Shown here piece by piece: positions 133 through 20,482 of a DNA stretch of 64,000 nucleotides (position 1 is its first letter; each line of letters opens with the position of its first letter). The stretch comes from Fibrella musci (GTDB lineage: Bacteria; Bacteroidota; Bacteroidia; Cytophagales; Spirosomataceae): NCBI RefSeq assembly GCF_041321105.1, contig NZ_JBGGWD010000005.1:8544-72543 (forward strand). The letters are read 5' to 3'. The notes under the pieces are model-generated. The model was not told the origin of the DNA and ran no database searches. It saw only the letters and a program-made list of their open reading frames with translations. A program made the translations under genes and the position numbers.

Positions 133-374
133 TTCTTCATAGCGTATAACATTGAAATTTGAACATTAAGCACATTAATTAGTACTAATTTGCCAGTTAG
201 TTACAATTATCAATATTTCCACGCATATGGTGTCACCAAAATGAATAATACATTGACTGAATTTATTAAGCGGTAAATATCATCCTATGTAGTAAAGTTT
301 CATAGAAGGTCAACACAGACAGATTAAGAGATTATCATTTTCATTATCAATCATTTACCTCGTCGATCTGATGG

Positions 375-641: not shown

Positions 642-677
642 GCGGTTTCGCTAAGCATTACAGCTAGGATAAAGCTA

Positions 678-1322: not shown

Positions 1323-1442
1323 CCCGCAGAAGGATTAGATTTCGTAAACAGCAGAAACCTAGCAACGTGCAGCCAGATTAGGAAACAGGGTTATCCGTTG
1401 TTTACCTTTCAGCAGCTCGATCCGTCTGTAAAATAGCACTGG

Positions 1443-3296: not shown

Positions 3297-3302
3297 AGGA
3301 CG

Positions 3303-3809: not shown

Positions 3810-3923
3810 AGACTATCTTTTTCAGTCTTTCAACGGCGCGTTCACTCTAAAAAGCTGCGTAAAAGCATTTGATAGTTTCGTGTTCCAGTGATTCGTCCCG
3901 CATATCCATAAGTTAGCGAGCAG

Positions 3924-3951
3924 TTTTCCGATGGAAAATACTTGGAATACC
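3924..3951. repeat. Iteron-like unit 1: palindrome TTTTCCGATGGAAAA followed by GGAATACC
   Basis: Exact 15-bp palindrome, repeated 103 bp downstream. Confidence 0.55.
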
Positions 3952-4026
3952 TCGCATCCCGGTAAAGGTCATCGCTTGATTGCATCAGCAGTTCAACAGC
4001 TTAGTTTTCCTCTGCTTATCCGAAGG

Positions 4027-4055
4027 TTTTCCGATGGAAAACGCCCGGAATACCC
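4027..4055. repeat. Iteron-like unit 2: palindrome TTTTCCGATGGAAAA followed by GGAATACC
   Basis: Identical 15-bp palindrome plus a GGAATACC tail. Lies in the noncoding leader upstream of the primase operon. Confidence 0.55.
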
Positions 4056-4333
4056 AAGCAGTGAACGCAGTTGCCTCTGCAACCTGCTTCTGGCTATGGC
4101 ATCCTGTGGATTTTCTGTGACAGAAACCCTCGTTTCCTCCCAGCTTCTGCGTCAGAAACTAGGCACAGGATGCCCTGCTCTTGATGCGTTAGCCAAGACG
4201 GTTACTCACACCGCAGCCCCACCTTCTAATAACTATTGGTTGGCCCGAAGCCCTCGAATGTTGTAAAAGCCGTTTAATTCCGTCCCAAATACGGGATAAC
4301 TATCCTAGGTTATTACCGGCTTGCATCGTCCTT

Positions 4334-5125
4334 TTGACGATTGAACTTCAACCTCCACACCTTATGGTACCAAGTCGCTTACTGTTGCTACTTGTGAATC
4401 TCGCCCTCATCAGCCTGGCCTGTGATAGAAAGAAGCAAGAGCCGTCTACGCCTGCCCCCAGCCAGCATCTCTGTACGATGATGGGCCAAATCGAGCCCGA
4501 TCAGACACTTACTGGTGAATCCACACTGCTATGGCCCAAAAAGCGGATCGAGGTCTACTTTATGGATGATGATGGGCAGGTTCGAGATCGGGTCTTGGCT
4601 ATCGCCAATGCCTGGAAGCCATTCTCCGGCGTTCAATTTGTTCGTTCGTTCGATCAGAGCACATCCGATATTCGGGTATCCTTTCGAACTGACGGATGGT
4701 GGTCCTACATCGGAACGATGTCAACTGAAGTAGGCAAAGACTCAGCGACCCTATCCCTAGATAGCCTGTACTTATACCCCCCTGATAAATTTAGAAGCAT
4801 CGTCTTACACGAGTTTGGTCACAGCCTAGGATTACTGCACGAACATCAGCATCCGTTTCTTGAGATCGACTGGGATCTGCCTGCTCTGTATAAATACTAC
4901 GAGGATGAATATGGTGTCGATACGACTTGGGTGAAGGAAAATGTAATCCACAAATACGAGAGTTTGACCGGCATTTATTGCGAACCGGATCTAAAGTCCA
5001 TCATGCTTTATAAGATCCCCCCTGGTCTAACAAAAAACGCCATTGTCGCACCGGAGCCTCTGGATTTATCCGTATTAGACAAAAAATACATCCGCATCAT
5101 CTATGCAGGTGGCACCTGTAATTAA
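4334..5125 (+). CDS. Astacin-like (M12A-type) zinc metalloprotease, lipoprotein
   Basis: HEFGHSLGLLHEH matches HExxHxxGxxHE, with a SIMLY Met-turn. N-terminal signal with LISLAC lipobox. Confidence 0.7.
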   Translation: MTIELQPPHLMVPSRLLLLLVNLALISLACDRKKQEPSTPAPSQHLCTMMGQIEPDQTLTGESTLLWPKKRIEVYFMDDDGQVRDRVLAIANAWKPFSGVQFVRSFDQSTSDIRVSFRTDGWWSYIGTMSTEVGKDSATLSLDSLYLYPPDKFRSIVLHEFGHSLGLLHEHQHPFLEIDWDLPALYKYYEDEYGVDTTWVKENVIHKYESLTGIYCEPDLKSIMLYKIPPGLTKNAIVAPEPLDLSVLDKKYIRIIYAGGTCN

Positions 5126-5142
5126 CCTAAATCGACTTAACC

Positions 5143-6705
5143 ATGAAACGTCTACTCTTCTTGGCCCTGCTTACAGCTTTATACAGCTGCAAATCATCAC
5201 AGGTTGGTAAAAGTAAAACTAGCAATAATGATCAATCGGGTACAATCCAAGAGGAAGCAGCGGCAAACGACCCATCACAGGTACAAACGAAGTCCCTAAT
5301 TGAAAATGCGCTGATAACCGTTGACTTTGCTTCACCTAAGTACCCGCCTGTTATCGCAATAAGACCCAAGCAGACGCTTGAGATCGAGCTAAAAAACCTC
5401 AATCCATATCTATATGAAGTTTCAGTAAAAGACTCCTTGCTGGTGTTTCAAACCGAGCAGCCGGCTCTATTTGGCCAAATCTTCAAGTTACCGGAGTTAG
5501 AAGCAACCCCTACCGAGACCCCACCCGCCAACGATAAAGTAGCTGGAAAAGCCCCAGATCCTAATTCTTCAGCCAAACGGGCAAAAGAGGATGAAGGTGC
5601 GCTGGAACAGGCTTTGAAGACGTTCCTGGCTGGCTATTCAGGAAAAGAGAACAACGCTAAAGACCTGCTTATTCTGTCCACGATTGCGGATGATATCGGC
5701 AAATTGCTCACCGATTGTTATTCAACCCTGGATGAACTGAAAACTACGGCCAGATCATACATCGTCAGTAAGATCCCGGAACTCGACGTGGCGTCTTTAC
5801 CGATTGGCGTGCAGACCGAGATTACCAACAAGTCGACGGCTTTACGGAATGACTTAGAACGGTATGTGGCGACCGGTACGGATCTTAAGAAGCGGTACCT
5901 TGCTATCTTAGAGCGAGCCGACGGGGATATGACGCTCACTCAATATAAGAGTATTGAAAAAGATGTCAAGGAAAAAATAGCCTTGATCGATAAAATTCTT
6001 GAGAACATAAAGAAGATCCAAGACAAGATAAAAGCATTTGATGAAGCGAATGTCGGCGCTACAATCGAAGAGAACTATAAGAAGATCGCTACGTCCCGCA
6101 CCAATAGAACTATCCTACGCCCCACCAATTACAGTACCGATGAGGTCAATGTCTTCATCCAGGTAAAGAAGAAGAAGGAGGTCTTTTGCAACCCGGAGAT
6201 TAATAGCTTCCCGGTCATCGCCCTTGTTAAGGGTGGGGTAAAAATCGATTTCAGTACAGGCGTCGTCTTCAACATGGGACGTCAGTACTTTTTCAACCAA
6301 AACTATTACTACGACTCTGTGAGACGGGGGGACGGTAAGATGGCGGATAGTGTTCGGATTACCCGTAATCGAAACAACAACATCTTAGTACCATCGATCG
6401 GGGCCTTTCTACATGTATACTCGCGCCTCAACTCACAAGTCAATATTGGCGGTATGGTCGGGGCCAGTTTAGGCGCTGATCAGCGAGCCTACATTCATGT
6501 TGGCGGCTGTTTACTGCTCGGCAAGTCGGATCGCCTGGTCATTGGTGGTGGGGTTTCGATTGCGAACGCCAAGACGTTGGACGGCCAGTATTCAGAAGGG
6601 CAAGTCATTAAACGATCCTTGGCACCGACCCAAATACCAAGGGAGGATGCCACCCGGGTTGGCGCCTTCGTCAGTCTTAGCTGGAACCTGAACCTGGTCA
6701 AATAA
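5143..6705 (+). CDS. Lipoprotein of unknown function (520 aa)
   Basis: Signal peptide with LYSC lipobox. Starts 18 bp downstream of the metzincin gene. Confidence 0.55.
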   Translation: MKRLLFLALLTALYSCKSSQVGKSKTSNNDQSGTIQEEAAANDPSQVQTKSLIENALITVDFASPKYPPVIAIRPKQTLEIELKNLNPYLYEVSVKDSLLVFQTEQPALFGQIFKLPELEATPTETPPANDKVAGKAPDPNSSAKRAKEDEGALEQALKTFLAGYSGKENNAKDLLILSTIADDIGKLLTDCYSTLDELKTTARSYIVSKIPELDVASLPIGVQTEITNKSTALRNDLERYVATGTDLKKRYLAILERADGDMTLTQYKSIEKDVKEKIALIDKILENIKKIQDKIKAFDEANVGATIEENYKKIATSRTNRTILRPTNYSTDEVNVFIQVKKKKEVFCNPEINSFPVIALVKGGVKIDFSTGVVFNMGRQYFFNQNYYYDSVRRGDGKMADSVRITRNRNNNILVPSIGAFLHVYSRLNSQVNIGGMVGASLGADQRAYIHVGGCLLLGKSDRLVIGGGVSIANAKTLDGQYSEGQVIKRSLAPTQIPREDATRVGAFVSLSWNLNLVK

Positions 6706-6846
6706 GTAGGATTGTATGATGTTGCGGGTAGCCAGACAGAACCGCTCAGAACGGGCAAGCATACGAAATGGTGAGTCTTCTTAACAATGGTATTTATATA
6801 CTACATTTGTTAATAGTGTTATTCACTACCACCATTCACTTTCTTC

Positions 6847-7236
6847 ATGTCTGCTTCGCCCTACTCAATGACCGATGCCATTGCCCTGATGGATGAATGC
6901 CAGCGCAACTTTATCGCCAACCAAGCCCTGCTGCTCGATCTGCAACAGACCGATTCGTTGTACGATCAGTTGCTGACCCTGCCCCTCGATGAACTGGGCC
7001 GAAGCCTCAACACAGCCACCCTCGACTCGCTGCAACGGTCGTATCGTAACGGCATGGACATCATTCAGACGCAGCATCGGATGTTGCAGGTACTGGACTC
7101 GGTTAGGATGAGTGATCAGATCCTGCTGGGCTTTGATCTCCGGGAGTCTGCCCGCACGATCATCCGCCTGGCGACCGATCTATGGGAAAAGCAGGCGATT
7201 CTCCTCGCTCGCTTTGGGCGATGTCACAGCCTGTAA
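6847..7236 (+). CDS. hypothetical protein (129 aa)
   Basis: ORF ending at a strong bidirectional terminator. Confidence 0.4.
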   Translation: MSASPYSMTDAIALMDECQRNFIANQALLLDLQQTDSLYDQLLTLPLDELGRSLNTATLDSLQRSYRNGMDIIQTQHRMLQVLDSVRMSDQILLGFDLRESARTIIRLATDLWEKQAILLARFGRCHSL

Positions 7237-7279
7237 TGAAACAGCCCCTGTCAATTCGCTTGACAGGGGCTGTTTCATT
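7235..7279. terminator. Bidirectional intrinsic terminator, 20-bp perfect stem with a 5-nt loop
   Basis: AATGAAACAGCCCCTGTCAA-TTCGC-TTGACAGGGGCTGTTTCATT, placed between convergent genes. Confidence 0.7.
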
Positions 7280-7304
7280 AAGTAGAGTCTACTCCGGCCG
7301 CCGA

Positions 7305-10300
7305 TTAACTCCGACGGGACAGGTTCTGATAGTAACGAGTGATGCCATTGGGCCCAGCCTCTGACTCGGCAAAGCCGTTGCGGTCGATGTTAATGTTGAC
7401 CTGCTTCAACTGACGCAGTTGCTGACTCATCTGGTCCAACCGTTCTAAAAGCTGCTGATTCAGTTCCTGCTGCATGCTGACCGTTTCGGGGGCAACACCG
7501 GACGACAGTGCACTCGGCACCTGCATGGGGGGCAGGTAGATGTCCGTCCAGGGCCTGAGGATCGGCATGGTCAGTTGAGGCATCGACGGTGCCGGCAGCA
7601 GCAGGCGTTGTACCAGCTCGCGGTTAGTGACGTCGCCGTAGAGCCGACGGATGGCCGCGGACTCCTCGATGCTGAACACCCGTTCGCCTTTGGTGAGCCA
7701 CACTGGCACGGTATCGATCCCATCCGGATAGCGCGGGTCATCGACGTAATCCGTCCCCTTGGCGTATTTCTGACCCGTTTCCAGATCATAAGCGTCGGCG
7801 TAGTTAAAAAAGCCATTGACTGTTCTGCCCCCCGTATCAGTCGCGTAGCCGTCGATGGCTTCGGGCCGGTTGGCGTTGTAGAGCAGGTAGACCTTCCGTA
7901 CGCTCCCGTCAGGACGTTTGACGTAAATCTCACCCCGATAGCTCCCGTCACCCGTCCGCAGGCTATCGAGCACCGTGTTCATCTCCACCCAGTTCCCCCC
8001 ACTATCAAAGCCTGAACCCCGCACGGCGCCGTTGGCCGTGTAGGTACTGTTGCGATCAAACGACTTGCCACCTAACTCCCCGATGTAGGCGTTCAGTTCG
8101 TTAATCAGACCGCCGTTCCCGCCCCGCGCTTTCAATTTGGCGACCTCGATTTGCAGCTCAGTAATGGCCATATTTTTACGGGCATTGAACAGATTACGCT
8201 CCGCCTCGTAGGTTGCGTTGGCGTACTCGGTGTTGGCTAATCGACGTTGGTAGGCGGTGTTCACCTCATTATCCTTCAACTGGTTCTGGTACTTCAGAAT
8301 CGTTGCGGTCAGTTCGGCCTGAAGCGCTTCAATCTTGGTCTTGGTCTCCGTTTCCAGCGTCTTGATCCGGCTTTTCAGCTCCGTCTCTTTGGTTTCGTAG
8401 TCCGTGCGGTAGGTGTCGAGGGTTGTTTTAAGTTGGGTCTTCAGCGCCTCAGTTTCCTCCTTCTGGCGTTTTTCCAGTTCCAGTACCTTCTGAGTCTCCT
8501 CTTCCTTAAGTTTTTCGGTGAGGTCTTTCTCCTCCTCTTTAAGCTGCTTACTGACCAGTGTATTCGCCTTCGACTTGTCAAGCTTTGCATCCTCCACGTC
8601 TTTGTGGACCTGCTGAATCCGCTTCTCGTACTCATTAACGACGCGCGCCTTTTCGGCCTCATCGGTGAGGGTGGCGAGTATCCGATCACGCTGCGCAATC
8701 AGTTTATCAGTCTCTGTGGTGCGGTAGCGTTCGAGCGCCTCGTCACGCAGCCGGTCGATAATACCCGTGGCCTCCAACTCATCGGCCTTTGACTGTTCGA
8801 CCAACGATTTTCGATACTCATACGCATCACGCACCGCCTGTTTCTCGGCCTCATACCGGTCATTGATCTGTTGTAGGGCCCGGTCGTACTCCTCCTGGGC
8901 TAGATCACGCTTCTGATCGTAGGCATCCTTCAAGACCGCTAATTGGGCCTCGATGGCTTCCTTCTGTTTGTCCCGCTCCCCTTCGAGTAGCTCTTTCTGC
9001 TGCTCAAAGGCCTCTTTGGCTAAATCAATGGCTTTCTCGGTTCGGTCTTTCTCGGCTTCGTAGGCTTCTTCGATCTGCTTCAACCGCAATTCATGCACTT
9101 CCTTAAGCTCCGCCTTTTCCAACTCCAACTGTTCGATGCGCTCCCGCAGGCCCTTGGTTTGGTTGAAGCGACGCACCTCATCCAGCGTTTGCATGACCTT
9201 AGCCTCATCATCCATGTCTGAAGCCCTGATCTCGGCGATCTTCTGGATGAAGGCTAAATAATCATCCGTACGCCGTTGGTAGGCCGCTACTTCCTTCTCC
9301 TGCCGATAGAAGTTGCGCACCAGCTCAATCTGCTCATCATAGGTCCGTTCGGTCAGGGCAAGCTGCTCATCCAGATAATCCCGGTTTTGCTGACGGGAAG
9401 CCTTGTAGAACTCATCCAGAATGTCGCGGGTACGCCCGGCGGCTTCGGCGGTGGCCTGCCACTTGGCTCGTTCGGCCGCATTGAACATCTCGACCAGTTG
9501 GGTTACCAGTTGATAACCCATCGAAATCAGGCCCAACGTGGCCTGGGTCGAGGCGGTGGCGACTTGACTCACCGTTGCCTGATTGTCAGCCACGTTCTTC
9601 TTGGCCGCGGCCACGACCCCTTCCTGCGCCTTGATCTGCTGGGCATCGCCTGTTTTGTAGACCTCGAACAGCTTGGTCATCGCCCCCTCGTAAACCGATG
9701 TAGCGCCCTGTAAGTTGGCTTTGGCGACCTCTAGGGACTTACCCGACAGGGCATCCCAATCCGCGAACGTCTTCTTAGCTAGCCCGGCAATCGACCCCAT
9801 AAGCCCTGACTGCTGGGCCACCAGATCCACCACCAGGCCGAACACCTGTTTACGGCCTTCGATCTCATCGGCCATGTTCTTTTTCTTGATCTGGGCCGTT
9901 TCACGCTCGGCCTGCTCGATCTCCTGCTGCAACTCCCGGATGTCCTTTTTCCGCTCGGCGTTGGCCTCCTTTTCGGCTTTGAGTCGGGCCTGTTCCTGCT
10001 GCTTGCGGTCTTTGGTGGTCCACACCTGCAGGGCCGCAATGGCTTCCGCCGCTTCTTTTTCGATGCCCTGTTCCTGTTCCACCACATCCATCAGCACGTC
10101 GAGCTGATCCGCCCGTAGTTGGGCCCGCTTCTGTTCGTACTTCTCATGGATGGCAATCAACTGGGCCTTCACCGCCTCCTCAAATTGCTTTTCAACACCG
10201 AACGCGGCCTTCTTGGATACAATGCGTTTATTGGCCGCATCCATCTCAGCCCGCTCCTGCGCGGCCATCGCGGCCAGTTGCTGCTCATACGACCGGGCAA

Positions 10301-12866
10301 AATGACCTTTCATGAACGCTTCCCGGTCATGGGCGGCAAACACCTCAATCTCTTTGACTTTATCCGCTTCTGCTGTGGCCGTCGCGATGCGGGTCGTACT
10401 ACCCGTATCCTGCAACCGACTGAGGTTTTCTTCGTGGCGTTTTTTCTCGGCCAGCAGTTCAGCGCTCGAGCCTTTAGCGGCTTCCATGGCGTTCTGGTGG
10501 CGCGTCATCTCCGCATCCAGCATCGACTTGGTTTCCCCCTGACGCATCAGGTCGCGCCGTTGGGTGGATTCAAGGTTTTGCTTTTCCACCTCGCTGATGT
10601 TTTTCACCACGGTGCGCAGCGCCACAGTGGCCCCGCTGCCCATACCATGCCACAGGTCGTCCCACTGAGCGCGCATCCCGCCATTGAATTGCTTGGTGTA
10701 CTGGCTCGACTCATCCAGCGCTTTCAGTAGTTTGGCCGGATCCCCGTTGATCTGAATCAGCAACTCTTTGGGCAGTCGCTGCGCCGCCAGTTGCATGATT
10801 TCCTGTTCGGTTTTGTGCAACTCCCGTAGCCGGTCCCCATTGACTTCGACCCGGTAGGTTTCCCGCGCCAGCGCGATGCGATCCTGATACGATCGGTTCA
10901 CCTGCTTGAGCATCCTGTCAAGATCACCGTTGGACGTCTTCTCCGAGTTGATGCCGGCGAAGTATTCAGGGTATTTATTCACCAGATACTGAATCGCCAT
11001 GGCCCGCTCGACGGTGCCTTGCTTGGCTTGTTTGGCCAGCTCGACACTCTGGGTAATCAACCCGAGTTCCGTGCGGAGTTTGGTCTCCTGTTCGCCCACC
11101 GCATCGGTTACCTCGGTGGTGACCGCATCCCAGGCGGACATCGCTACCGTAATCGCCGTAACGGCCGTCAGTAAGGCCCCGATTGGATTGGCGACCACAA
11201 CGGCCCACAAAGAACGCCCCGCCACCGCCGAACGCACCTGAGCGGCGGTAAAGCCTTCGGTCGTACCGGCCATCGAAATCAGCGTCAGGTTGTAGGTGCC
11301 ACCAATGGCCACCGATGCCGCCCGGGTTACGTTGGCCGCCACCTCGGCAATCCTGGCCCGGTTAACGATAACCTCATACCCTGTCCAGGCGACAACGGCG
11401 GTACGTACCCACTTGGCCGTTCGGTCAATGGCCGAGTCGGATCCGGCCAGCACGTCGATCAAGTCACTCGTCCCGCCAATGACCTTTTGTAAACCATGCT
11501 GAACATAATCCCCCAGCCTCGCTTTGGCGAAAAAGAACTTGTCAGCCAGGTTAGACACCTGCCCGGCCATCGTTTCGGCCTGCATCTCCATCATGCGGTA
11601 GTAGCGGCCCCCTTCCGATGTGGCGTCTTGCAGGGCCTTCTTGACGTGGGCAAAACTGATCTCATGGGCTTCAGCCATCTTCACGACCTGATCGCGGGTT
11701 TTACCCATCGAAACGGCGAGCAAATCGTAAAGGGGTACGTTATTTTCGACCATTTGGTTAGTCTCAGCCTTGAAAAGGCGACCCTTGCTCATGATGTCGG
11801 TGTAGGCTTTGGCGACCAATGGCAGCTTTTCAGTACCCGCTACAGCGGCGATATCGCCCAGCATCTTGACCGTCGGAATCAACTCGGCCGTCGCTACCCC
11901 CATGGCTTTGAGGCGTCCGGTCACCGTCATTAGATCCTCCACCTGAAACGGGGTCGAAACGGCCAGCTTGGTCAACTCGATCATCAGTTGATCCGCCTGT
12001 TGTTTACTGCCCAACATCTGGGTCAGCCCCCCGGCGAAAATATCGACCTTCCCTTTGGCCTCGATTACCCCTTTCCCAAAGTCAAGGATCTCCTGCACCC
12101 CGAAAGCGGCCATAATCAGCGTACGGAGTTCACCATACACCTCCCGGTAGGCGCTGGGCTGACTGCGGATCAATTGGTTTTGCTGACCGATCTCCTGTCG
12201 TAACAGCGCGGTTTGGCGTAGCTGCTCCTGTCGAACGATGGCCGTCTGCTGATCCGCTTCCGCCTTGCGACCGATGGTCTGCTGTTGCAGTTCGGCGAGC
12301 AGCGCGGCCGTCTGCTGGTTGAGGTTATGCTTCTGGTCGGCCAGCTCCTGCGCCCGTAGCGCCTCGGCCTGCCGGGCCTGCTCCTTCAGGGCGGCATCAT
12401 ACTCAGCAGCCTGCCGGTTTAGCGCAGCCTTCAACTCGGTCAGTTCGGCGGCGTGATGAGCCTTCAAATCGGCTTCCTGTTTACGAAGCTCGGCCTCGCG
12501 TTCGGCCGTTAGCTCCTTGGCGAGTTCAGCCGCTAGCACCAGCCGTTCTTTTTCCGCGGTTTTGTAAGCAGTTGTCAAGCGATCTTCTGATTCTTTGAGT
12601 TGAATCAGTTGTCGATCCAGGGCGGCCTGCTTCTCGATGGTTTCCTGCCTGGCAACTTCTTTGGTGACGGCCAGTTGTTCGGCCGCCGCCGCCTTAGCCA
12701 GCGTGATCCCCTGCTGATAGGTTTGCTGGAGGGCACTGGCAGCTTTCTGGGCCACGGGTCCCTGCTCAGCTACCAATTGTTTAATGGCCTGAAGCTGCTC
12801 AATGGCTGAGGGTAATTCGGAGGCAACTGCGAATCGAAAGCGAATCGTCTGGTCGCGGTTTGACAT
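7305..12866 (-). CDS. Tape-measure-like giant coiled-coil protein (1853 aa)
   Basis: Residues ~230-560 resemble the phage tail tape-measure core, with long charged coiled-coil stretches. The ~300-aa C-terminal region is Gly/Asp/Tyr-rich and unassigned. Confidence 0.6.
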   Translation of the reverse strand: MSNRDQTIRFRFAVASELPSAIEQLQAIKQLVAEQGPVAQKAASALQQTYQQGITLAKAAAAEQLAVTKEVARQETIEKQAALDRQLIQLKESEDRLTTAYKTAEKERLVLAAELAKELTAEREAELRKQEADLKAHHAAELTELKAALNRQAAEYDAALKEQARQAEALRAQELADQKHNLNQQTAALLAELQQQTIGRKAEADQQTAIVRQEQLRQTALLRQEIGQQNQLIRSQPSAYREVYGELRTLIMAAFGVQEILDFGKGVIEAKGKVDIFAGGLTQMLGSKQQADQLMIELTKLAVSTPFQVEDLMTVTGRLKAMGVATAELIPTVKMLGDIAAVAGTEKLPLVAKAYTDIMSKGRLFKAETNQMVENNVPLYDLLAVSMGKTRDQVVKMAEAHEISFAHVKKALQDATSEGGRYYRMMEMQAETMAGQVSNLADKFFFAKARLGDYVQHGLQKVIGGTSDLIDVLAGSDSAIDRTAKWVRTAVVAWTGYEVIVNRARIAEVAANVTRAASVAIGGTYNLTLISMAGTTEGFTAAQVRSAVAGRSLWAVVVANPIGALLTAVTAITVAMSAWDAVTTEVTDAVGEQETKLRTELGLITQSVELAKQAKQGTVERAMAIQYLVNKYPEYFAGINSEKTSNGDLDRMLKQVNRSYQDRIALARETYRVEVNGDRLRELHKTEQEIMQLAAQRLPKELLIQINGDPAKLLKALDESSQYTKQFNGGMRAQWDDLWHGMGSGATVALRTVVKNISEVEKQNLESTQRRDLMRQGETKSMLDAEMTRHQNAMEAAKGSSAELLAEKKRHEENLSRLQDTGSTTRIATATAEADKVKEIEVFAAHDREAFMKGHFARSYEQQLAAMAAQERAEMDAANKRIVSKKAAFGVEKQFEEAVKAQLIAIHEKYEQKRAQLRADQLDVLMDVVEQEQGIEKEAAEAIAALQVWTTKDRKQQEQARLKAEKEANAERKKDIRELQQEIEQAERETAQIKKKNMADEIEGRKQVFGLVVDLVAQQSGLMGSIAGLAKKTFADWDALSGKSLEVAKANLQGATSVYEGAMTKLFEVYKTGDAQQIKAQEGVVAAAKKNVADNQATVSQVATASTQATLGLISMGYQLVTQLVEMFNAAERAKWQATAEAAGRTRDILDEFYKASRQQNRDYLDEQLALTERTYDEQIELVRNFYRQEKEVAAYQRRTDDYLAFIQKIAEIRASDMDDEAKVMQTLDEVRRFNQTKGLRERIEQLELEKAELKEVHELRLKQIEEAYEAEKDRTEKAIDLAKEAFEQQKELLEGERDKQKEAIEAQLAVLKDAYDQKRDLAQEEYDRALQQINDRYEAEKQAVRDAYEYRKSLVEQSKADELEATGIIDRLRDEALERYRTTETDKLIAQRDRILATLTDEAEKARVVNEYEKRIQQVHKDVEDAKLDKSKANTLVSKQLKEEEKDLTEKLKEEETQKVLELEKRQKEETEALKTQLKTTLDTYRTDYETKETELKSRIKTLETETKTKIEALQAELTATILKYQNQLKDNEVNTAYQRRLANTEYANATYEAERNLFNARKNMAITELQIEVAKLKARGGNGGLINELNAYIGELGGKSFDRNSTYTANGAVRGSGFDSGGNWVEMNTVLDSLRTGDGSYRGEIYVKRPDGSVRKVYLLYNANRPEAIDGYATDTGGRTVNGFFNYADAYDLETGQKYAKGTDYVDDPRYPDGIDTVPVWLTKGERVFSIEESAAIRRLYGDVTNRELVQRLLLPAPSMPQLTMPILRPWTDIYLPPMQVPSALSSGVAPETVSMQQELNQQLLERLDQMSQQLRQLKQVNINIDRNGFAESEAGPNGITRYYQNLSRRS

Positions 12867-13016
12867 AAATGAGGTCGTGAGATGGTGAGACCGAATTTAA
12901 CCTATTTGTTAATAACAATATTAACTTTCTAACTAATAATAATATTAACAAATACCTATTAATATATATGTCGACAATAAGGTTGAATAGGCGAAACGCA
13001 TTTGCAGTTATAGTCA

Positions 13017-14270
13017 ATGAAAAAAAATATATTAGCAATCAAATTTTACATTTGTACAACTACAAGAGGTTATAACATGCTAGAGAGTATCTGTATCAAA
13101 AGTGGACCAAATGATAATAGAATTGACTTTGGATTTTTATGTGAGTCAATTCTATTCTACGGAAAAGTAAGAGTAATTGTAGACTATAGGCGATTAAGAT
13201 ACTTATTCGACAGAATGAGTATCAGAGGGCTTGAGAGACTTATAAAACAAGGCAGAATCGAGGTTTTTATCGCAGAAAAGCATTTAGGTGCAATGACTTT
13301 TGGCGAAAACAAAAGCGATAAAAGATATGCGTTTGAAAGTATTCAAGGTGTAAATGATAATTACATAACAGAGTTGTATAAGGCTTTTGAACTTACCACA
13401 AAAGATATCAGAAAAAGTATCAAATTGACTAATGAATTCTGCGAAATTGTTAATCCTTTTAACTACTCGTCCTCATTGATTGAGTCTCTCAATGAAGATC
13501 TTGATAACAGAGAATATATAATTAACACTATGCATAGCTACATCAGTAGCAATTATCCGGAAGTAAGTATATCACCTTTTGACATCAATATAAATTTTAC
13601 TGTACACCCAGGTGAAGATGTCAAAAAAATGGCGGGATTTTCTAAAGAAAGTATTAGTGTTGAATCTAATTTACCAATAGACAAATTCCTCGAGTTAGAT
13701 CGCCGTCGAGGGTATGCAGGAACAGATTTTTACAGCGGTTATTTTCTGTCCCTATTAGAAACTGCCGGAGATATAGATACTGCAGCCCAATATTCGAGTG
13801 AAATAGCAACTAGAGAAATTTATTCAAATATGATTCGGTTCAAAGTTGAATCTTTATATATGAAGAATAAAAAAAGCACACAAGAGCTAGATGCTTTTAA
13901 TGAATATGTGATTAAAAATTGTCATTCTGTAGCTCAAGCCATTAATAGCTATAAGTTAAGTTTCTCAAAATTCATGAAAATTTTAGATACATCGGACAGA
14001 TTTAAAGGATGGTTAACTGAAAGTAATGATGATATTGGGTTAGTGGCAGAATATTACAAAGCCCTTAGTACAGACAACAGTATGTTTAGCAGCTTTCCAT
14101 TAAAACATATGAAGTTCATTTTTTTTGCGGCTGCAGGATTCTTTTTGACACCGATTCAAGGTATTGCATTAGGTGGGCTAGATTCCTTCTTCGTTGATAA
14201 GATAAAAAACGGCTGGAAACCCAATCAATTTGTTGACAATCAATTAAAGCCTAGTTTGCCGAAGAAATAA
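13017..14270 (+). CDS. Novel AT-rich cargo protein (417 aa) with a C-terminal hydrophobic segment
   Basis: Codon usage is very AT-rich compared with the flanks. No known motif. The tail FIFFAAAGFFLTPIQGIALGGLDSFFV is TM-like. An alternative start lies at M20. Confidence 0.5.
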   Translation: MKKNILAIKFYICTTTRGYNMLESICIKSGPNDNRIDFGFLCESILFYGKVRVIVDYRRLRYLFDRMSIRGLERLIKQGRIEVFIAEKHLGAMTFGENKSDKRYAFESIQGVNDNYITELYKAFELTTKDIRKSIKLTNEFCEIVNPFNYSSSLIESLNEDLDNREYIINTMHSYISSNYPEVSISPFDININFTVHPGEDVKKMAGFSKESISVESNLPIDKFLELDRRRGYAGTDFYSGYFLSLLETAGDIDTAAQYSSEIATREIYSNMIRFKVESLYMKNKKSTQELDAFNEYVIKNCHSVAQAINSYKLSFSKFMKILDTSDRFKGWLTESNDDIGLVAEYYKALSTDNSMFSSFPLKHMKFIFFAAAGFFLTPIQGIALGGLDSFFVDKIKNGWKPNQFVDNQLKPSLPKK

Positions 14271-14457
14271 AACAGTCTATGCCCAATTACCTTTACTTAT
14301 TTATTGATCCGTGAATAATTCTGTAAAGTAATCTACTGGTGGGCATAGGCAAATCATTCACAAACACATGAATAGCCAAGATTGACTTTACGAACTTATT
14401 CACGAGTCAACACCATTTTTTTATTTCCACTTTATTTATATCAATTGACATAATACT

Positions 14458-15537
14458 CTATATACCATTGAGAGAATTATTTATTTTCTCTTCTTGTTGG
14501 CCATCCCAAATATCATGTGATGAGCTATTTTCATCTCGTGAAATTGATAATAGGTTTTCCAAGTCTTTTGCACGAGTATATTGTTTATATTTGTCGTTTG
14601 GGGAAAAACGCAAGCTATAAAAATTAAATCGTAAAGCATATTTACTAAATTTTGTTATTGAGGCTTTGCCACCAAATGCTAGCATTAATTTTATTGTTTT
14701 ATCTGACAATTCGATTAAATCTGAGTTATTCACAAAAAGGCGAAATTGCTTCTTAAGCGGAAAGCCATTAGTGATTATACTACCTTGTTTCTGAAAATTA
14801 ACGCCTTTGTTATCATTTGTAAAATTGAGGCCAGTATCTTTTGCAATATTCTCAAATTCACCCAACGATGTAGTCAAGTTAATGTATATATCGCTGTCAT
14901 TTTCTCTGATACTACTGTTGAATATAGATGCTTCTAAAAGAATCTCTATCAATAGACTTTCATGCTGATCATGCATCTGGTATTGGACTACGCGTAAATA
15001 GCCTAATAATTCGGGTCGTCTAGTTTGTCTGAATAATGCCTCTACCACATAATGTGGTGCACCGATGCTCTGCCCATCCAGCCGTATTGGATATTCCTTT
15101 TTAAACTGATGAGGTTTGCTCTTACTTTCTTGTACCTCAATTAAATATACAAAATATCCATCGGTGAAATTAACAGCCGCTACTCTTATACCAACAGGCA
15201 TGTATGATATAGCTCCATGAATAAGATTGACTAATGCATCTTTTGTTTTAAGTGTAGTTGGAATAGGTGTGAGTTCACCCTTTACGACTCTGTATTTATC
15301 ATGTACTGCTACTTCAGATGGGGCACCAAATATCAATAATCCCCCTTCTGAGTTCAAGAAGGCAGTGATCGTGCGTAGAACACCATCAAAGTTAAAACCG
15401 CCATTTTTATCGGCAACAAAGCTCTTAAATTCCAAAGTGAGCGACTCTTCACGTGCCTGTGAGAAGTAATCAATCAGATCCTGACTGGTAATTTCTTCAT
15501 TCAATGATTTGCCAATATGGATTTCTGCAAATGACAT
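14458..15537 (-). CDS. AlbA_2 (Schlafen-like putative DNA-binding) domain protein with an unknown ~230-aa C-terminal domain
   Basis: N-terminal LTLEFKSF...GGLLIFG pattern typical of AlbA_2. AT-rich coding sequence. Confidence 0.55.
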   Translation of the reverse strand: MSFAEIHIGKSLNEEITSQDLIDYFSQAREESLTLEFKSFVADKNGGFNFDGVLRTITAFLNSEGGLLIFGAPSEVAVHDKYRVVKGELTPIPTTLKTKDALVNLIHGAISYMPVGIRVAAVNFTDGYFVYLIEVQESKSKPHQFKKEYPIRLDGQSIGAPHYVVEALFRQTRRPELLGYLRVVQYQMHDQHESLLIEILLEASIFNSSIRENDSDIYINLTTSLGEFENIAKDTGLNFTNDNKGVNFQKQGSIITNGFPLKKQFRLFVNNSDLIELSDKTIKLMLAFGGKASITKFSKYALRFNFYSLRFSPNDKYKQYTRAKDLENLLSISRDENSSSHDIWDGQQEEKINNSLNGI

Positions 15538-15569
15538 GGTTATATAATTTAATGTTTTTTGATAATTTG

Positions 15570-16937
15570 TTAGAGCAACGAGTCAAACGCAGCATCGACG
15601 GCACCTGACCCAAATGAATCTAGATAAATATTTGTCGTTGTCTCGTCTTTATGGCCCAGCGCCTGACCAATTACGGCGCTGGCATGACCAGCTCGCTTTA
15701 GATTAGTGGCAAATGAGTGCCTGGCTACATAAGTAGTCAATGGTGTTGCTAGGCCAATCGAGTCACTGATTGTCTTTAGATCCGTGTTTACTTGTCCCAG
15801 CACCTTGTGCAGCCGGTTCTTTACCTTATCGGCTGTTGAGTGGCTGGCTTTGTTCAGAATCGGAAAAATAAACGCATCCGGTCCGGTGTACGTCTCCCTT
15901 CGATATCGTTCAATTATGGACACAGCAGGAGCTATCAGCTTCAGCGAGAAATTACCGCCTGTCTTTTGCCGAACGTAGCTGATCCGGTAATTATCCTCTC
16001 CGGCTCGTTGTACGTCTTGCCAACGCAGTTGCGCCAGATCGACAAAGTTGATGCCGGCCACGAAGTAAGAGAACAAAAATACGTCCTTGGCCAGTTGCAT
16101 TCGCTCAGATTCCCGGCTTAGGCTGGCGTACTTGCCCGTTGGTCTAGCCGGCACTTCGTATTCTTCGACTTTGCGGATATCCTCCCGACTGACGGCCCGT
16201 TTCCTAGTCGAGGTATCGAATTTGCCGACACTAAATTTGCTTCGCTCCGCTACATTGCGGGCAAAGGGGTATTTGTCAGGCTTCATGGCCCCGTCAGCAA
16301 TGGCCCGGTTGAGCACCGTGCGCAAAACTCGAAACCGCTGGGACATGGTGTTCTCTGTATTACTTCGCTGCCGCAGGTAGGCCTCGAACTGGTTGCAAAA
16401 GGAAAGGTTCACCTGTTCAAAAGAGACGTCTGTGACTTGCTTTTGCTCGGTCAGAAACGAAGCCAGTTGTTTTTGTACATCGAGGTAGGTATCTGCCGTT
16501 CCATTGCGATGGGTAGCTCTGAGTGATTCGACCGTCTCTGTAAAGAAAGCTAGCAGTGTAGTGCGACGCGCCTGCTGCCTGCCTTCAATGGCTTTACTAA
16601 TAACCGCTGTTACATCGTGTCGCTCATCCGACTCAGTCAGCATAGCCGCTGCCTGGCTATATTTGTTTTCCCATTCGGCCAGTTTCTCGATCAGTTGAGT
16701 CCTGAATGGGGATGGATAGTTTTTTCGTATAGCCTCCCGATAGTTTGAGTGCTGGGCGTTCCAGTATTTGGGGTGCATAGTCAACCCAGTAGCAACATAT
16801 TTGGTCTTCCGGTCCTTCGTCACACGAAGCCAGAAAGGACACAGTCCTTCCTTATCCGCTTTATCCAGTCGGTACACGATCCGCACGGTGGCGCGGCCCT
16901 CTTTATGGCTGGTGGTACGTGGCATTTGATTTACCAA
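15570..16937 (-). CDS. int: Tyrosine site-specific integrase
   Basis: C-terminal catalytic region ARHSFATNLKRAGHASAVIGQALGHKDETTTNIYLD carries the R..H..R..Y signature. Confidence 0.85.
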   Translation of the reverse strand: MVNQMPRTTSHKEGRATVRIVYRLDKADKEGLCPFWLRVTKDRKTKYVATGLTMHPKYWNAQHSNYREAIRKNYPSPFRTQLIEKLAEWENKYSQAAAMLTESDERHDVTAVISKAIEGRQQARRTTLLAFFTETVESLRATHRNGTADTYLDVQKQLASFLTEQKQVTDVSFEQVNLSFCNQFEAYLRQRSNTENTMSQRFRVLRTVLNRAIADGAMKPDKYPFARNVAERSKFSVGKFDTSTRKRAVSREDIRKVEEYEVPARPTGKYASLSRESERMQLAKDVFLFSYFVAGINFVDLAQLRWQDVQRAGEDNYRISYVRQKTGGNFSLKLIAPAVSIIERYRRETYTGPDAFIFPILNKASHSTADKVKNRLHKVLGQVNTDLKTISDSIGLATPLTTYVARHSFATNLKRAGHASAVIGQALGHKDETTTNIYLDSFGSGAVDAAFDSLL

Positions 16938-17083
16938 AGCGGCTCAGGTAAAACGCTAGGTAAAACAAATATAGTAAAACAACGAGATACAGCCAGCTAC
17001 AACCAGAGCAACCGAAGTGTTTAAACTACTGCAAATCAACAATCTATATAAAATTCTGGATATAATAGAAAGTATATAGGCCC

Positions 17084-17124
17084 ATCCTTCTAAGAAGGCG
17101 GTCATAAGTTCGAATCCTATCGGG
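17084..17124 (+). repeat. Partial tRNA-Arg 3' segment (anticodon stem-loop, T-arm, acceptor 3' strand): att-like copy
   Basis: CCTTCTAAGAAGGCGGTCATAAGTTCGAATCCTATCGGGATC. Inverted copy of 17183-17228 with 2 mismatches. Confidence 0.55.
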
Positions 17125-17132
17125 ATCGCATA

Positions 17133-17178
17133 AAAAACAAAAAAGCCAGTCACCTGATTGGTTAACTGGCTGATTTTT
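17133..17178. terminator. Hairpin GCCAGT..ACTGGC flanked by A- and T-runs, at the centre of the tRNA-fragment palindrome
   Basis: AAAAAAGCCAGT-loop-ACTGGCTGATTTTT. Confidence 0.45.
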
Positions 17179-17182
17179 AGTG

Positions 17183-17262
17183 TGATCCCGATAGGATTCG
17201 AACCTATGACCGCCTTCTTAGAAGGAAGGTGCTCCCCTATTAAGCATTCATCCAAGCTGGGC
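17183..17262 (-). tRNA. tRNA-Arg(TCT)-like gene, possibly truncated or a pseudogene
   Basis: D-arm GCTT/GAGC. Anticodon stem CCTTC/GAAGG with loop CTTCTAA giving anticodon TCT. T-arm ATAGG-TTCGAAT-CCTAT. Acceptor 3' strand CGGGATC-A. I could not find a complementary 5' acceptor strand. Confidence 0.4.
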
Positions 17263-17753: not shown

Positions 17754-18974
17754 ATGTTTCGTTGTCCGAGTGTCCCCTCCTGTCTATTTCTCTTATTGAC
17801 GCTGCTCGCCTCTGCATTGGGTGGTTGCAAAAACGCCGCCACCGAGCCCGTCGACCCAACACAGCCCCCCGGCGGCGAGCCACCCCTCGAAAAACCCTTC
17901 ACGGCCATTCCCGACGAATTTGTGGGTACGTGGTACGCCTATCACAATCAAGGCCCACTAACCGACAACTGGACCAACGGTACTTTCCAGGGCGAACAGG
18001 GTTTTCGCGAGTTCCGTACTATGGTCTTCACCGGCGACGGCCGTAACGCCGTAGAGTACACCTCTCAGGTCTACAACTACGGCGATGAGACGTTGCAGAT
18101 CATCTACAAGGTCACAGGTACGTTGGTGTACAAAGCCAGTCCCGCTTCGATCACGTTCCACGCCCAGACGGGGATCCGGCGGACGTTTAGTAACAAGTAT
18201 TCGGGCTACAAAGACGCCTCGATAATTGCCAAGGACCTAAAGGACTACCAGATTGTCTGGGAGAATCCGCAGGCCACCAACATGTCGTCGATGACCAACT
18301 ACCTGACGACCACAATTATCGACCAGTCCGGACGGTATGCGAGTAAATACCAGAAACTAGGCGCAGGCAACCAGACGCCGACCACGGGCCTACCCTCGAC
18401 TACGCCCATCACCACCGGTACGTCGGTAAAAATCGGAAACCTGTATTACCCCACCGTTACGATTGGCAATCAGGAGTGGCTGGCCACTAACTATGCCGGT
18501 CCGGGTAGCCTGACTGAGCGCAACAAACCGCAGTACGGCACCTTCCTGGAATACGCCGATCTGGCAAAAATTCAACTGCCCGCGGGTTGGCGAATTCCCA
18601 GTCGGCAAGACTACACCCAGTTGCTCGAATCCCAGGGGTTGACCGTGTATGACTGGGGCACCAACGGCGAAGATGTTCCCTCGAAACGCATGTTGGGCCA
18701 GCTCATGGCCACCGACGCCTGGACCAAGAAAGACGGGTACGCCAACAACAAATCGGGTTTCAACGCCATGCCCGCCGACGTGCGCCGGCCCAAGGGTGTC
18801 AACCACGGCGAAGGCACGAACTGCACCCTGTGGATATCCGATCGAAATAGTTCAGATAACCCTATGTCGTTCAACATTATTCAGCTGCCCGGCGACACCT
18901 ACGCCACATTTGGCGAGCAGGTTCTGGGTTATGCCCCCGTGCTTATCCCACTTCGCCTCGTCCGGAATAAATAG
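17754..18974 (+). CDS. Lipoprotein with a C-terminal domain I take to be the Fibrobacter major paralogous domain
   Basis: Signal with LGGC lipobox. C-terminal GWRIPSRQDY...GFNAMPA pattern. Confidence 0.6.
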   Translation: MFRCPSVPSCLFLLLTLLASALGGCKNAATEPVDPTQPPGGEPPLEKPFTAIPDEFVGTWYAYHNQGPLTDNWTNGTFQGEQGFREFRTMVFTGDGRNAVEYTSQVYNYGDETLQIIYKVTGTLVYKASPASITFHAQTGIRRTFSNKYSGYKDASIIAKDLKDYQIVWENPQATNMSSMTNYLTTTIIDQSGRYASKYQKLGAGNQTPTTGLPSTTPITTGTSVKIGNLYYPTVTIGNQEWLATNYAGPGSLTERNKPQYGTFLEYADLAKIQLPAGWRIPSRQDYTQLLESQGLTVYDWGTNGEDVPSKRMLGQLMATDAWTKKDGYANNKSGFNAMPADVRRPKGVNHGEGTNCTLWISDRNSSDNPMSFNIIQLPGDTYATFGEQVLGYAPVLIPLRLVRNK

Positions 18975-19151
18975 AGCTGCGGCTTCCCCCGGCCAGATCG
19001 GCATCTGGCGACTCCGTATCCGGCGGGTAACGTACCTGCCGCCCGGCTCAGTACCTAAAGAACCGACCTGCCCCAGGCCTTGAGTCGGGTCGGTTCTACT
19101 GCCTCATCCACACCCCAATAAGATTCATCCATCCTCTTTTTTCATACCCAA

Positions 19152-19706
19152 ATGACAACTACTCGACTGTTGAACAGCCTTTTTCAGCCTCCTGTGCGCC
19201 GTTGTGCTGCCGGACTCCTGTCGATTGGCCTCTTGGCGTGCTCTTCCCCGGAAACGGCCCCGGCAACGGGCAACAACTACCTCAAGGTGACGCTCAACGG
19301 CCAGACCAAAACCTACACAAACGTCAAACTCGACGAAGAGGCCGTGGCTGGTTCGCTCCGCGTCTGGACCGTAGAAGGCAGAACCAGCGACGACGACTTT
19401 TTGTCCATGTCGTTCTGGGGAACCGGCACGGGCACTTACCCTTATAAGCCAACGGTCGATGCCTTCAAGCAGGTTAGTCAGATCGAATACCGAACCAAAA
19501 ACGGAATGCTGGCCAGTTATGCCGCCCTGGTTTGCCCCGACAACGCGGGTTATTATGCCCCACAGGGCCGCGTCGGAGTCACCCAGTATACCAATGGCAA
19601 AGCCGTTACCGGCACCTTCAGCGGGGCGTTGATGAGCGATCAGGACGCCGACAACTGCAACAAGCAGGGCACGCCCTTCAGCGGCGAATTTTCTATCCGT
19701 CAATAA
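19152..19706 (+). CDS. Lipoprotein (184 aa)
   Basis: Signal with LLAC lipobox. The antisense ORF 19125-19844 is probably a shadow of this gene. Confidence 0.5.
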   Translation: MTTTRLLNSLFQPPVRRCAAGLLSIGLLACSSPETAPATGNNYLKVTLNGQTKTYTNVKLDEEAVAGSLRVWTVEGRTSDDDFLSMSFWGTGTGTYPYKPTVDAFKQVSQIEYRTKNGMLASYAALVCPDNAGYYAPQGRVGVTQYTNGKAVTGTFSGALMSDQDADNCNKQGTPFSGEFSIRQ

Positions 19707-19831
19707 CGCCCGATTCATAACCAATCTATTCAACCACGAACCCATTTCTGGCTCACCACGAACCGATAACCGGCGAGGGTGATCATCCAGGGCATCATCC
19801 TGGAGGTGGGTATCTGGCCAGCCACACAACA

Positions 19832-20482
19832 ATGAATACTTCACTCATAACAAGTCAGATGACCTCGCTAAAGGGGATTTACTGGTGTTTGATCTGCGCA
19901 CTCCTGACGGCCGCCTGCCAGTCAACACCCGGCATAATCGAGCCACCGACCCCATCGCCTGACTCGGTTCGCATCGATGGTCATACCTACCCGACCCGGC
20001 TTATTGGCGCTCAGCGCTGGACCACCATCAATTACCGGGGACCGGGCGGTATTCCGTATGGCACTGGCACCGAAAAGCCGATCTACGGCCGCTATTACAC
20101 CTATGCTGAAGCCAAGGCGATTGCCCTGCCCGCAGGCTGGCGCTTGCCTACAGAGGCCGACTGGGTAACGCTGGTGCAAAGTCAGGGCATTATTCTGGAA
20201 CAGAACACGGCCAGGAAGCAGGAAGCGGTCAAAAAGCTGCTGTCGGTAACCAATTGGCGTAGTCTGCCGGGCACCAATGCCTCAGGATTCAACGCGCACC
20301 CTGCCGGCTACAGCACCAACAACCTTCCGCCCGAAGATGGCGATATCGCCGAGTTCTGGGCTGCGGGTGGCGTGTCGATGAGCATTCAGGAAAATAGCCA
20401 GGCTAATCACCTGCTGCGCTTCTACAGCAACGACAACGACCCGTCGGTCCGCTACACGCTCCGTTTTGTCTCCGATCGGTAA
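19832..20482 (+). CDS. Secreted protein with the same Fibrobacter-paralogous-like domain
   Basis: GWRLPTEADWVTLV...GFNAHPAGY; paralog of the 17754-18974 C-terminus. Confidence 0.6.
   Translation: MNTSLITSQMTSLKGIYWCLICALLTAACQSTPGIIEPPTPSPDSVRIDGHTYPTRLIGAQRWTTINYRGPGGIPYGTGTEKPIYGRYYTYAEAKAIALPAGWRLPTEADWVTLVQSQGIILEQNTARKQEAVKKLLSVTNWRSLPGTNASGFNAHPAGYSTNNLPPEDGDIAEFWAAGGVSMSIQENSQANHLLRFYSNDNDPSVRYTLRFVSDR

Follow-up and report, generated by a model that had tools for sequence, protein, structure and literature searches.

An AT-rich islet beside a Fibrella integrase carries a Schlafen (AlbA_2) gene and a gene of a widespread unannotated family, apparently as independent cargo

Introduction

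In Fibrella sp. WM1, an AT-rich islet of about 2.7 kb adjoins an integrase gene and contains two convergent open reading frames, hereafter gene A and gene B. Do the two genes work together against phages, or are they separate accessory genes that happen to be neighbours, and what could each of them do? A preliminary description of the window (the whole stretch of 64,000 nucleotides analysed here) had treated them as partners. We favour, with modest confidence, the reading that they are two independent single-gene modules, adjacent by chance, with a proposed nuclease role for B and a proposed effector role for A.

Results

Composition and borders of the islet

The GC content drops sharply at about position 12,870 and stays between 0.25 and 0.40 until about 15,570-15,600, compared with 0.53-0.62 in the flanks. 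The lowest part is 12900-13099, with a GC content of 0.25. The features of the islet and its borders are as follows.

7305..12866, minus strand: tape-measure-like gene (1,853 aa), left border of the islet, divergent from gene A
12867..13076, no strand: AT-rich intergenic and leader region with an inverted repeat and a -7-like box
13077..14270, plus strand: gene A (397 aa from the likely start; the frame is open over 13017..14270, 417 aa)
14271..14457, no strand: convergent intergenic gap of 187 bp with a 26-nt inverted repeat
14458..15537, minus strand: gene B (359 aa), AlbA_2/Schlafen domain and C-terminal beta-sandwich
15570..16937, minus strand: tyrosine integrase (455 aa), right border of the islet
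17097..17245, no strand: candidate attachment region, with a partial tRNA and an inverted, near-identical 31-nt copy

The preliminary description was right on the contrast in composition and on the position of the two genes, wedged between a tape-measure-like gene and an integrase. The left-hand gene matches Pfam TMP_3 (E 3.6e-20) and phrog_9959 (E 1e-41), and tape-measure proteins of Riemerella phages were among its tblastn matches (E 1e-26). The right-hand gene carries the Arm-DNA-bind_5, SAM_5 and Phage_integrase domains. Foreign cargo beside the integrase, as proposed earlier, also agrees with this composition. We read the islet as accessory cargo, gained by horizontal transfer, of an element that carries an integrase, since its GC content is 0.25-0.40 against flanks of 0.55-0.60 and A-family genes in general are GC-poorer than their flanks (39 of 45 loci, median difference -9 points). 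The left end of the element falls outside the window. The islet may, as suggested earlier, mark an integrase-proximal hotspot, in which case related elements would carry other cargo at this position; relatives of the integrase were not found in IMG/VR, and a tblastn search of the element backbone genes against all fetched loci gave no match except the B homologues. Upstream of the integrase, a partial tRNA (17191-17245, minus strand) was detected by the Rfam tRNA model (39.3 bits, model positions 10-63). A 31-nt 3' portion of this tRNA (17184-17214, minus strand) recurs inverted and near-identical at 17097-17127 on the plus strand, the 31-mer matches having 0 and 1 mismatch. No intact tRNA gene is present within 17097..17245, where ARAGORN finds nothing.

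Repeated motifs had been reported between 12867 and 13016. The sequence AATATTAAC does occur twice, at 12917 and 12941, but both copies belong to a single 21-nt imperfect inverted repeat (12903-12923 / 12934-12954, 86% complementary), and a count of two in the window is only slightly out of the ordinary, being reached in 4 of 100 shuffles. A Bacteroidota-type -7 box, TACATTTG (TAnnTTTG-like), lies at 13047-13054, upstream of the likely start of gene A, and the integrase is preceded by a TATATTTG box (16966-16973). Statements on promoters are weak, because scans for TAnnTTTG (28 found, 27.9 expected window-wide) and for sigma-70 promoters (16 found, 12.6 expected) were both at chance level. The region 12867..13076 is a putative promoter/operator region. 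In the gap between the two genes, a 26-nt inverted repeat (14304-14329 / 14385-14410, 81% complementary) could possibly act as a bidirectional terminator. Gene B shares its strand with the integrase and starts only 32 nt beyond the integrase stop codon. As no separate promoter box was seen for it, gene B may be co-transcribed with the integrase.

Gene B encodes a predicted stand-alone Schlafen nuclease

The AlbA_2 (Schlafen-like) domain attributed to the gene B product was borne out by a match to Pfam SLFN_AlbA_2 (PF04326) at residues 31-158 (E 7.7e-12; 46.2 bits against a cut-off of 25.3), and the same domain was present in 120 of 120 gene B homologues among the matches listed. The predicted structure (pLDDT 89) adopts the three-dimensional Schlafen/AlbA_2 fold over residues 25-170 approximately, followed by a beta-sandwich at about 175-345. 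The C-terminal part, formerly given as some 230 aa of unknown sequence, is thus about 185 aa long and confidently predicted to be a beta-sandwich. AlbA_2 was the sole domain found in the Pfam scan, which detected neither an HTH nor an HATPase_c_4 domain; a match to Nop10 (E 0.077) was at chance level.

The motif E31-x4-E36-x-K38 is invariant in 42 homologues. In the window, the reading frame of gene B is intact and E31, E36, K38 and the other family-invariant residues are kept. In an alignment with the Schlafen chain 5yd0, E31 and E36 fall on its ES...IEFK motif, the glutamates of which we take, from the SLFN13 literature, to be the catalytic glutamates of that protein. Where this chain has GVDD, a position that by our own offset count is presumably D248 of SLFN13, the third catalytic aspartate, the B family has G71-A72-P73 (GAP). 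The third acidic member of the mammalian Schlafen triad is therefore not conserved in the family at the mapped position; other invariant aspartates of B (D100, D154) might substitute for it. B is a stand-alone prokaryotic Schlafen (AlbA_2) protein and, given the conserved E-x4-E-x-K centre, most likely a regulated, metal-dependent RNA (tRNA) endonuclease of the abortive-infection type. Its beta-sandwich would be the likely regulatory or sensing part. Once activated, B would stop translation and, through abortive infection or exclusion, benefit both the element and the host.

The B family is common in Bacteroidota. Regions resembling prophages (L068, L069) contain B homologues, which also occur in unrelated elements and, outside elements, beside CBASS or Avs2; one homologue is located 60 nt downstream from a CBASS operon (L070). 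Genes encoding CBASS cyclases, Avs2, AbiEii, PtuB (Septu), ParE, integrases and transposases are among the neighbours of the family. An anti-phage defense role for B is likely.

Gene A belongs to a large family without annotation

Gene A had been described as encoding a protein of 417 aa. The frame 13017..14270 is indeed open over that length, but the likely start is at 13077, giving 397 aa, because all homologues begin at the position of M21 (MLESI/MFESI) and the -7 box precedes this start. The protein comprises an N-terminal alpha/beta domain (1-200), a helical domain (218-330), a Gly-rich hydrophobic segment (about 345-370) and a GWKPNQF motif (379-385). As for the hydrophobic end ascribed to it, the stretch FIFFAAAGFFLTPIQGIAL is hydrophobic (Kyte-Doolittle 1.88, 19-residue window), but about 30 hydrophilic residues follow, including the near-invariant GWKPNQF. 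Across the family, the segment at this position is Gly/Ala-rich and moderately hydrophobic: the value reaches at least 1.6 in 21 of 57 members, and the Kyte-Doolittle maximum falls within the last 80 residues in 40 of the 57. The earlier view of A as a membrane-anchored effector depends on this segment, which is clearly hydrophobic in the window copy and only borderline in the family. The predicted model has a pLDDT below 50 at residues 330-384, which cover this segment. Most relatives have about 25 more residues in the Gly-rich segment than the window copy, which may for that reason be impaired; its reading frame is intact, and the family-invariant E23, Y28, E242 and WKPNQF are all kept.

No recognizable domain had been noticed in A, and scans of Pfam, NCBIfam, PHROG and PADLOC gave no credible match either, a hit to AAC(6')-29 (E 0.03) being at chance level. 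The same type of scans on 57 diverse family members likewise gave no credible match, with only scattered single PADLOC matches at E above 5e-4. Neither A nor B had a match at E<=1 in PADLOC v2.0.0 (2023), in line with the earlier statement that neither gene corresponds to a named defense system. No sequence or fold relationship of A to a named family was found in Pfam, NCBIfam, PHROGs, PADLOC, PDB or BFVD, and neither the solved nor the viral structures include a close relative of its fold. No publications on the WKPNQF motif came up in a literature search.

At E<=1e-3 the A family comprises 2,195 representatives, a size of about 2,200 that counts clusters at 50% identity. Nearly all of them are full length, with 385-410 aa, and the family as a whole is about 395 aa long. 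They occur in Bacteroidota, Acidobacteriota, Proteobacteria, Planctomycetota, Verrucomicrobiota, Chloroflexota and other phyla. Type I restriction-modification genes are located near A-family genes at four loci (L001, L008, L015, L062), one of which (L008) also has McrBC-like genes with DUF499. Other neighbours are a PIN-TPR and an AlbA_2-HATPase protein (L007) and toxin-antitoxin inserts within a his operon (L010); integrases were found near the gene at six loci, in addition to L002 and the window. Genes at positions -2 to +2 matched 173 PADLOC models, against 59 for genes of the same loci at least 6.5 kb away. This count is a rough one, swollen by redundancy among the restriction-modification models, and the distal control genes also include defense genes. 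Many neighbours have housekeeping functions, including sulfatases and oxidoreductases, and A-family genes often have no element genes nearby. Both families recur in mobile or defense-rich neighbourhoods, which supports the mobile and defense setting suggested earlier. In tblastn searches, neither A nor B matched any of 50,697 phage genomes, and the single plasmid match of A was on a Buttiauxella plasmid which, judged from its gene content, we take to be a phage-plasmid. The low GC content, the neighbours and the occasional decay of A-family genes suggest that they behave like horizontally transferred conflict genes.

As a working model, A would be a single-protein conflict or defense effector whose C-terminal part, a glycine-rich hydrophobic hairpin together with the WKPNQF motif, acts at the membrane under the control of the Rossmann-like N-terminal domain and the helical domain. 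A defense role for A is possible. We propose only tentatively, and with rather low confidence, that A represents a new and widespread single-gene anti-phage or anti-mobile-element family in which the Rossmann-like domain, with a sensing or enzymatic role, triggers a membrane-active glycine-rich hairpin.

Genes A and B do not occur together elsewhere

No B-family gene was present within 10 kb on either side of about 55 other A loci, and the window was the only match when a B profile was run over all A loci. Reciprocally, an A profile had 0 matches in 55 B loci. Blastp clustering of neighbouring genes revealed no conserved partner for the A family or the B family, and the closest homologues of A (P0002, 54%) and of B (P0030, 47%) are both unpaired. 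The partnership put forward in the preliminary description thus did not stand, and sharing an AT-rich islet should not be taken to mean that two genes work as a pair. From these gene neighbourhoods we read A and B as unrelated, independent mobile accessory genes rather than as a two-gene system, each of them a plausible single-gene anti-phage candidate.

Discussion

A cooperative two-gene anti-phage system, made for example of a sensor and a membrane effector, would fit the adjacency of A and B in one compositionally distinct islet, and one A homologue (L007) adjoins a different AlbA_2 protein, of 441 aa and with HATPase_c_4. However, A and B are convergent and separately transcribed, any overlap between the two families is small beside the size of either, and the absence of co-occurrence, down to the closest homologues, largely refutes such a system, which we consider very improbable. 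A toxin-antitoxin reading of the two genes was also rejected, as they are convergent, both large and never co-occur.

Other explanations bear on what the genes do. AlbA_2 domains occur in DNA-binding regulators too, and A and B could be maintenance or regulatory genes of the element rather than defense genes, B being a DNA-binding regulator and A a membrane protein of the element. Superinfection exclusion, lysis control and addiction are membrane roles that A could have in that case. This is rather unlikely, as B has no HTH or HATPase_c_4 domain and keeps its E-x4-E-x-K centre, as B homologues are also found in unrelated elements and outside elements beside CBASS or Avs2, and as A often lies without element genes nearby. 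It is more doubtful still that the genes are selfish or decaying cargo without current function. A in particular could be impaired, given the residues missing from its Gly-rich segment; the closest A relative is cut off by an IS element, in other genomes several members of the family are fragmented, and the junction tRNA, too, is degenerate. Against this, both reading frames are intact and retain all family-invariant residues. At a similar or slightly lower level of probability, A could be a HUP/Rossmann-like enzyme, cyclodipeptide-synthase-like or nucleotidyl-transferase-like, that acts on a small molecule and is not a membrane effector. Two independent single-gene modules remain our preferred reading. 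The composition, the domain content, the family sizes, the neighbourhoods and the lack of co-occurrence are observations, whereas nuclease activity, membrane action and a role in defense are proposals drawn from them.

Of the two genes, A is the more valuable lead, since its unannotated family is large, cross-phylum and conserved over its full length, and a structural relative could not be detected. Should A prove protective, it would define a new defense family; otherwise it stands for a sizeable unannotated family worth a Pfam entry.

Comparison with known systems

Single-gene abortive-infection or other defense proteins with C-terminal membrane-active segments resemble A by functional analogy only. 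Like them, A is stand-alone, patchily distributed, low in GC relative to its host, provided with a C-terminal hydrophobic segment and found among restriction-modification, toxin-antitoxin, integrase and defense genes. It differs in having no sequence or fold relationship to a named family, and its membrane action is one that we infer.

Several AlbA_2 proteins differ from B in architecture. The mammalian SLFN11/12/13/14 proteins have N-terminal tRNA endoribonuclease domains, whereas B has a single AlbA_2 lobe in 359 aa, no helicase, and the unconserved GAP at the counted position of the third aspartate. The AlbA_2 effectors SAMD9 and Avs9 combine a STAND NTPase with downstream sensor repeats, and B, at its size, has no STAND ATPase. 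Bacterial AlbA_2-HATPase_c_4 (RecG-like) putative regulators such as DIP2311 (PDB 3lmm) contain HATPase_c_4 and winged-helix domains that B does not have. In Cash (CRISPR-associated Schlafen) proteins, a Csx15/CARF-like Rossmann sensor is found in a type III CRISPR context; B has a beta-sandwich instead, and no CRISPR genes lie beside it in the window.

Bacterial AlbA_2 clades are significantly associated with defense (PMC12680541), and in CbCash the E17-D22-K24 centre cuts tRNA (PMC13462974). B is closest in kind to these prokaryotic Schlafen proteins (PMC13462974), with which it shares the AlbA_2/Schlafen fold, the E-x4-[E/D]-x-K centre, neighbourhoods of defense and mobile elements, and the combination of a small nuclease domain with a separate putative sensor domain. 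With its Schlafen domain and beta-sandwich, B adds a compact architecture to the set of bacterial Schlafen nucleases and could serve as a small model for how these nucleases are switched on.

The AT-rich islet and its borders

The 2.7-kb islet (~12,870 to ~15,600 in the window; GC 0.25-0.40, against 0.53-0.62 outside) is best read as two accessory genes, independent of each other and acquired horizontally, that sit with the integrase on one side and the remainder of an integrative element of phage origin on the other. The GC profile and the ORFs agree with the preliminary description of an AT-rich islet with two convergent ORFs, reaching from a tape-measure-like gene to an integrase. The products of both ORFs have 100% identity to NCBI entries for Fibrella sp. 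WM1 (Bacteroidota, Cytophagales). The features are as follows:

Left of the islet: tape-measure-like gene, 1,853 aa (Pfam TMP_3, phrog_9959, Riemerella siphovirus tape-measure proteins)
13017..14270, + strand: ORF A, inside the low-GC stretch, convergent with B
14458..15537, - strand: ORF B, inside the low-GC stretch, convergent with A
Right of the islet: tyrosine integrase of the Bacteroidota type

Two copies of the reported AATATTAAC motif are present, but they form the two arms of a single imperfect inverted repeat (21 nt), and the pair carries modest statistical weight. B lies downstream of the integrase on the same strand, 32 nt from its stop codon to the B start, so that co-transcription of the two is possible.

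A and B are not a pair

The islet had been described as a two-gene, putatively anti-phage cargo. The A-family loci came from the genomes of 56 species, from 5 viral contigs and from 7 distinct contexts in metagenomes or genomes; within 10 kb on either side of A, the sole match to the B-family profile was the window's own B. Conversely, an A-family gene was found in none of 55 B-family loci, 37 of which had at least 3 kb of flank. The two genes are thus not partners, and their convergent orientation means that they do not form one operon. The closest homologue of A (P0002, 54% identity), cut short by an IS element, has no B nearby, and the closest homologue of B (P0030, 47% identity) has no A nearby. 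When neighbours were clustered by blastp, neither family showed a conserved partner; the only genes that recurred beside A were tyrosine recombinases (6 loci, plus L002 and the window), sulfatases (4 loci) and HsdR (3 loci).

The surrounding element

Outside the islet, the element resembles either a prophage remnant or an integrative element of an atypical kind, and its left end lies beyond the window. Further features are:

1443-3296, - strand: Toprim and DnaB_C primase-helicase
17191-17245, - strand: partial tRNA (Rfam model positions 10-63)

Over window positions 1-7300, Pfam gave no match to a capsid, portal or terminase gene. The tape-measure-like gene stands alone on its strand; its neighbours at 4334-7236, on the opposite strand, encode an astacin-like metallopeptidase, then 520-aa and 129-aa proteins without a domain match. 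Other low-GC patches of the element (0.38-0.45; 1-500, 3501-4000 and 5001-5500) may be additional foreign inserts.

Beyond the integrase, the region 17080-17260 holds degenerate tRNA sequence, probably an att/tRNA junction that has been rearranged or has decayed. By eye, the anticodon loop of the partial tRNA reads TCT, which would be Arg-like. Its 3' portion (31 nt, 17184-17214, - strand) has an inverted near-identical copy at 17097-17127 (+ strand), beyond a hairpin-forming spacer, and the palindrome gives spurious Rfam "MIR6459" matches on both strands. ARAGORN found no intact tRNA in the 64-kb window. On the chromosomal side of the junction (17754-20482) lie three adjacent lipoprotein-like genes of normal host GC, two of them with Fibrobacter succinogenes major paralogous domains.

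Gene A belongs to a widespread orphan family

The family is an orphan one, and in the genomes that carry it its members behave much as defence or conflict genes do. A word-indexed search returned only 28 relatives; exhaustive profile search gave 2,195 cluster representatives at E ≤ 1e-3, including 832 at E ≤ 1e-30. Nearly all members have 385-410 aa and match end to end. They occur across many phyla of bacteria, and one contig with a member is placed in an archaeal genome bin. As anticipated, no domain was recognised: scans of A and 57 diverse relatives against Pfam, NCBIfam, PHROGs and PADLOC were empty. The genes had lower GC than the DNA around them in 39 of 45 loci (median difference -9 points), and their contexts were heterogeneous.

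Genomic contexts of A-family genes, by locus
Type I restriction-modification islands: L001, L008, L015, L062
McrBC-like genes with DUF499/DUF1156: L008
PIN-TPR and AlbA_2-HATPase cluster: L007
Toxin-antitoxin inserts within the his operon: L010
Integrase-bearing islands: L002, L013, L027, L065
Plain metabolic neighbourhood: L003

Neighbours within two genes of A matched 173 PADLOC models, against 59 for an equally large set of genes from the same loci, each at a distance of 6.5 kb or more; the test is crude, the models being redundant and the distal set also containing defence genes, and the enrichment is suggestive only.

Several copies look fragmented or IS-truncated. At L132 (288-2506), the closest A relative (54% identity) ends at residue 347, and a DDE_Tnp_1 transposase gene overlaps its 3' end. 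In a Methylococcaceae genome bin (L010, 6400-17200), the histidine-biosynthesis operon, an unusual insertion hotspot, is interleaved with accessory genes: the A-family gene, Phd/YoeB, a HEPN protein, a ParB_N protein, Uma2, and HipA_2 with DUF3037. In two Bacteroidota genomes (L027, 8779-11194; L065, 8811-11191), the A-family gene is directly preceded, at 43-53 nt and on its own strand, by a tyrosine recombinase, which hints at a small mobile cassette of integrase plus A. The sole plasmid match (L079, 60296-61492) is on p1WJP83 of Buttiauxella sp. WJP83, a 111-kb IncFIB plasmid that we judge from gene content to be a phage-plasmid because of its phage-like neighbouring genes (dnaE, 5'-3' exonuclease, a DUF2591 protein and an AAA family ATPase).

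The most likely start of A is at 13077, which leaves 397 aa, since every homologue starts at the position of M21 and a TAnnTTTG box lies at 13047-13054 of the window. The hydrophobic segment noted previously exists, but it does not end the protein: about 30 hydrophilic residues follow, with a near-invariant GWKPNQF. The AlphaFold model (pLDDT 77, pTM 0.69) has an alpha/beta domain at the N-terminus, predicted with confidence, then a helical domain and, before WKPNQF, a hydrophobic Gly/Ala-rich stretch of low confidence. With low confidence, we propose that A would be an effector directed at the membrane and controlled by its N-terminal domains. Most relatives have about 25 more residues in the Gly-rich segment than the window's A, and another copy may therefore be a better choice for experiments.

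Gene B joins the prokaryotic Schlafen proteins as a new putative nuclease

Relatives of B have 325-370 aa and come mainly from Bacteroidota. Two loci, L068 (with a terminase) and L069, are prophage-like regions. In Aquimarina algiphila (L070, 4475-7999), a B-family gene follows a CBASS operon (Sa_NUDIX effector, SMODS cyclase, E2-CBASS) at a distance of 60 nt, with both on the same strand. This gene may simply be a neighbour in a defence island, or it may serve CBASS as an accessory or alternative effector. Neighbours across the family include CBASS cyclases, Avs2, AbiEii, PtuB and several PADLOC candidate genes, as well as ParE toxins, integrases and transposases. No backbone genes are common to the window element and other B-carrying elements, and B is therefore itinerant cargo.

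The AlbA_2 domain read from the sequence was borne out by a match to Pfam SLFN_AlbA_2, the sole sequence domain of B. The C-terminal part indeed has no further sequence domain, yet the predicted structure (pLDDT 89) places a beta-sandwich after the AlbA_2 lobe, similar to generic beta-sandwiches such as TTHA1873 and macroglobulin receptor-binding domains. B would probably be an abortive-infection or exclusion effector gated by this domain.

E31, E36 and K38 are invariant in 42 homologues. In the alignment with the solved Schlafen chain 5yd0, E31 and E36 fall on its ES...IEFK motif, whose glutamates we take to be the catalytic E205 and E210 of SLFN13. Where an offset count places the third catalytic Asp of the mammalian proteins, the B family has GAP and so does not conserve it; judged from sequence, nuclease activity is therefore plausible but not assured. 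All bacterial AlbA_2 clades tested are significantly defence-associated (PMC12680541). The bacterial Schlafen CbCash cuts tRNA T-loops with an E-x4-[E/D]-x-K centre (E17, D22, K24; PMC13462974), and B keeps this arrangement.
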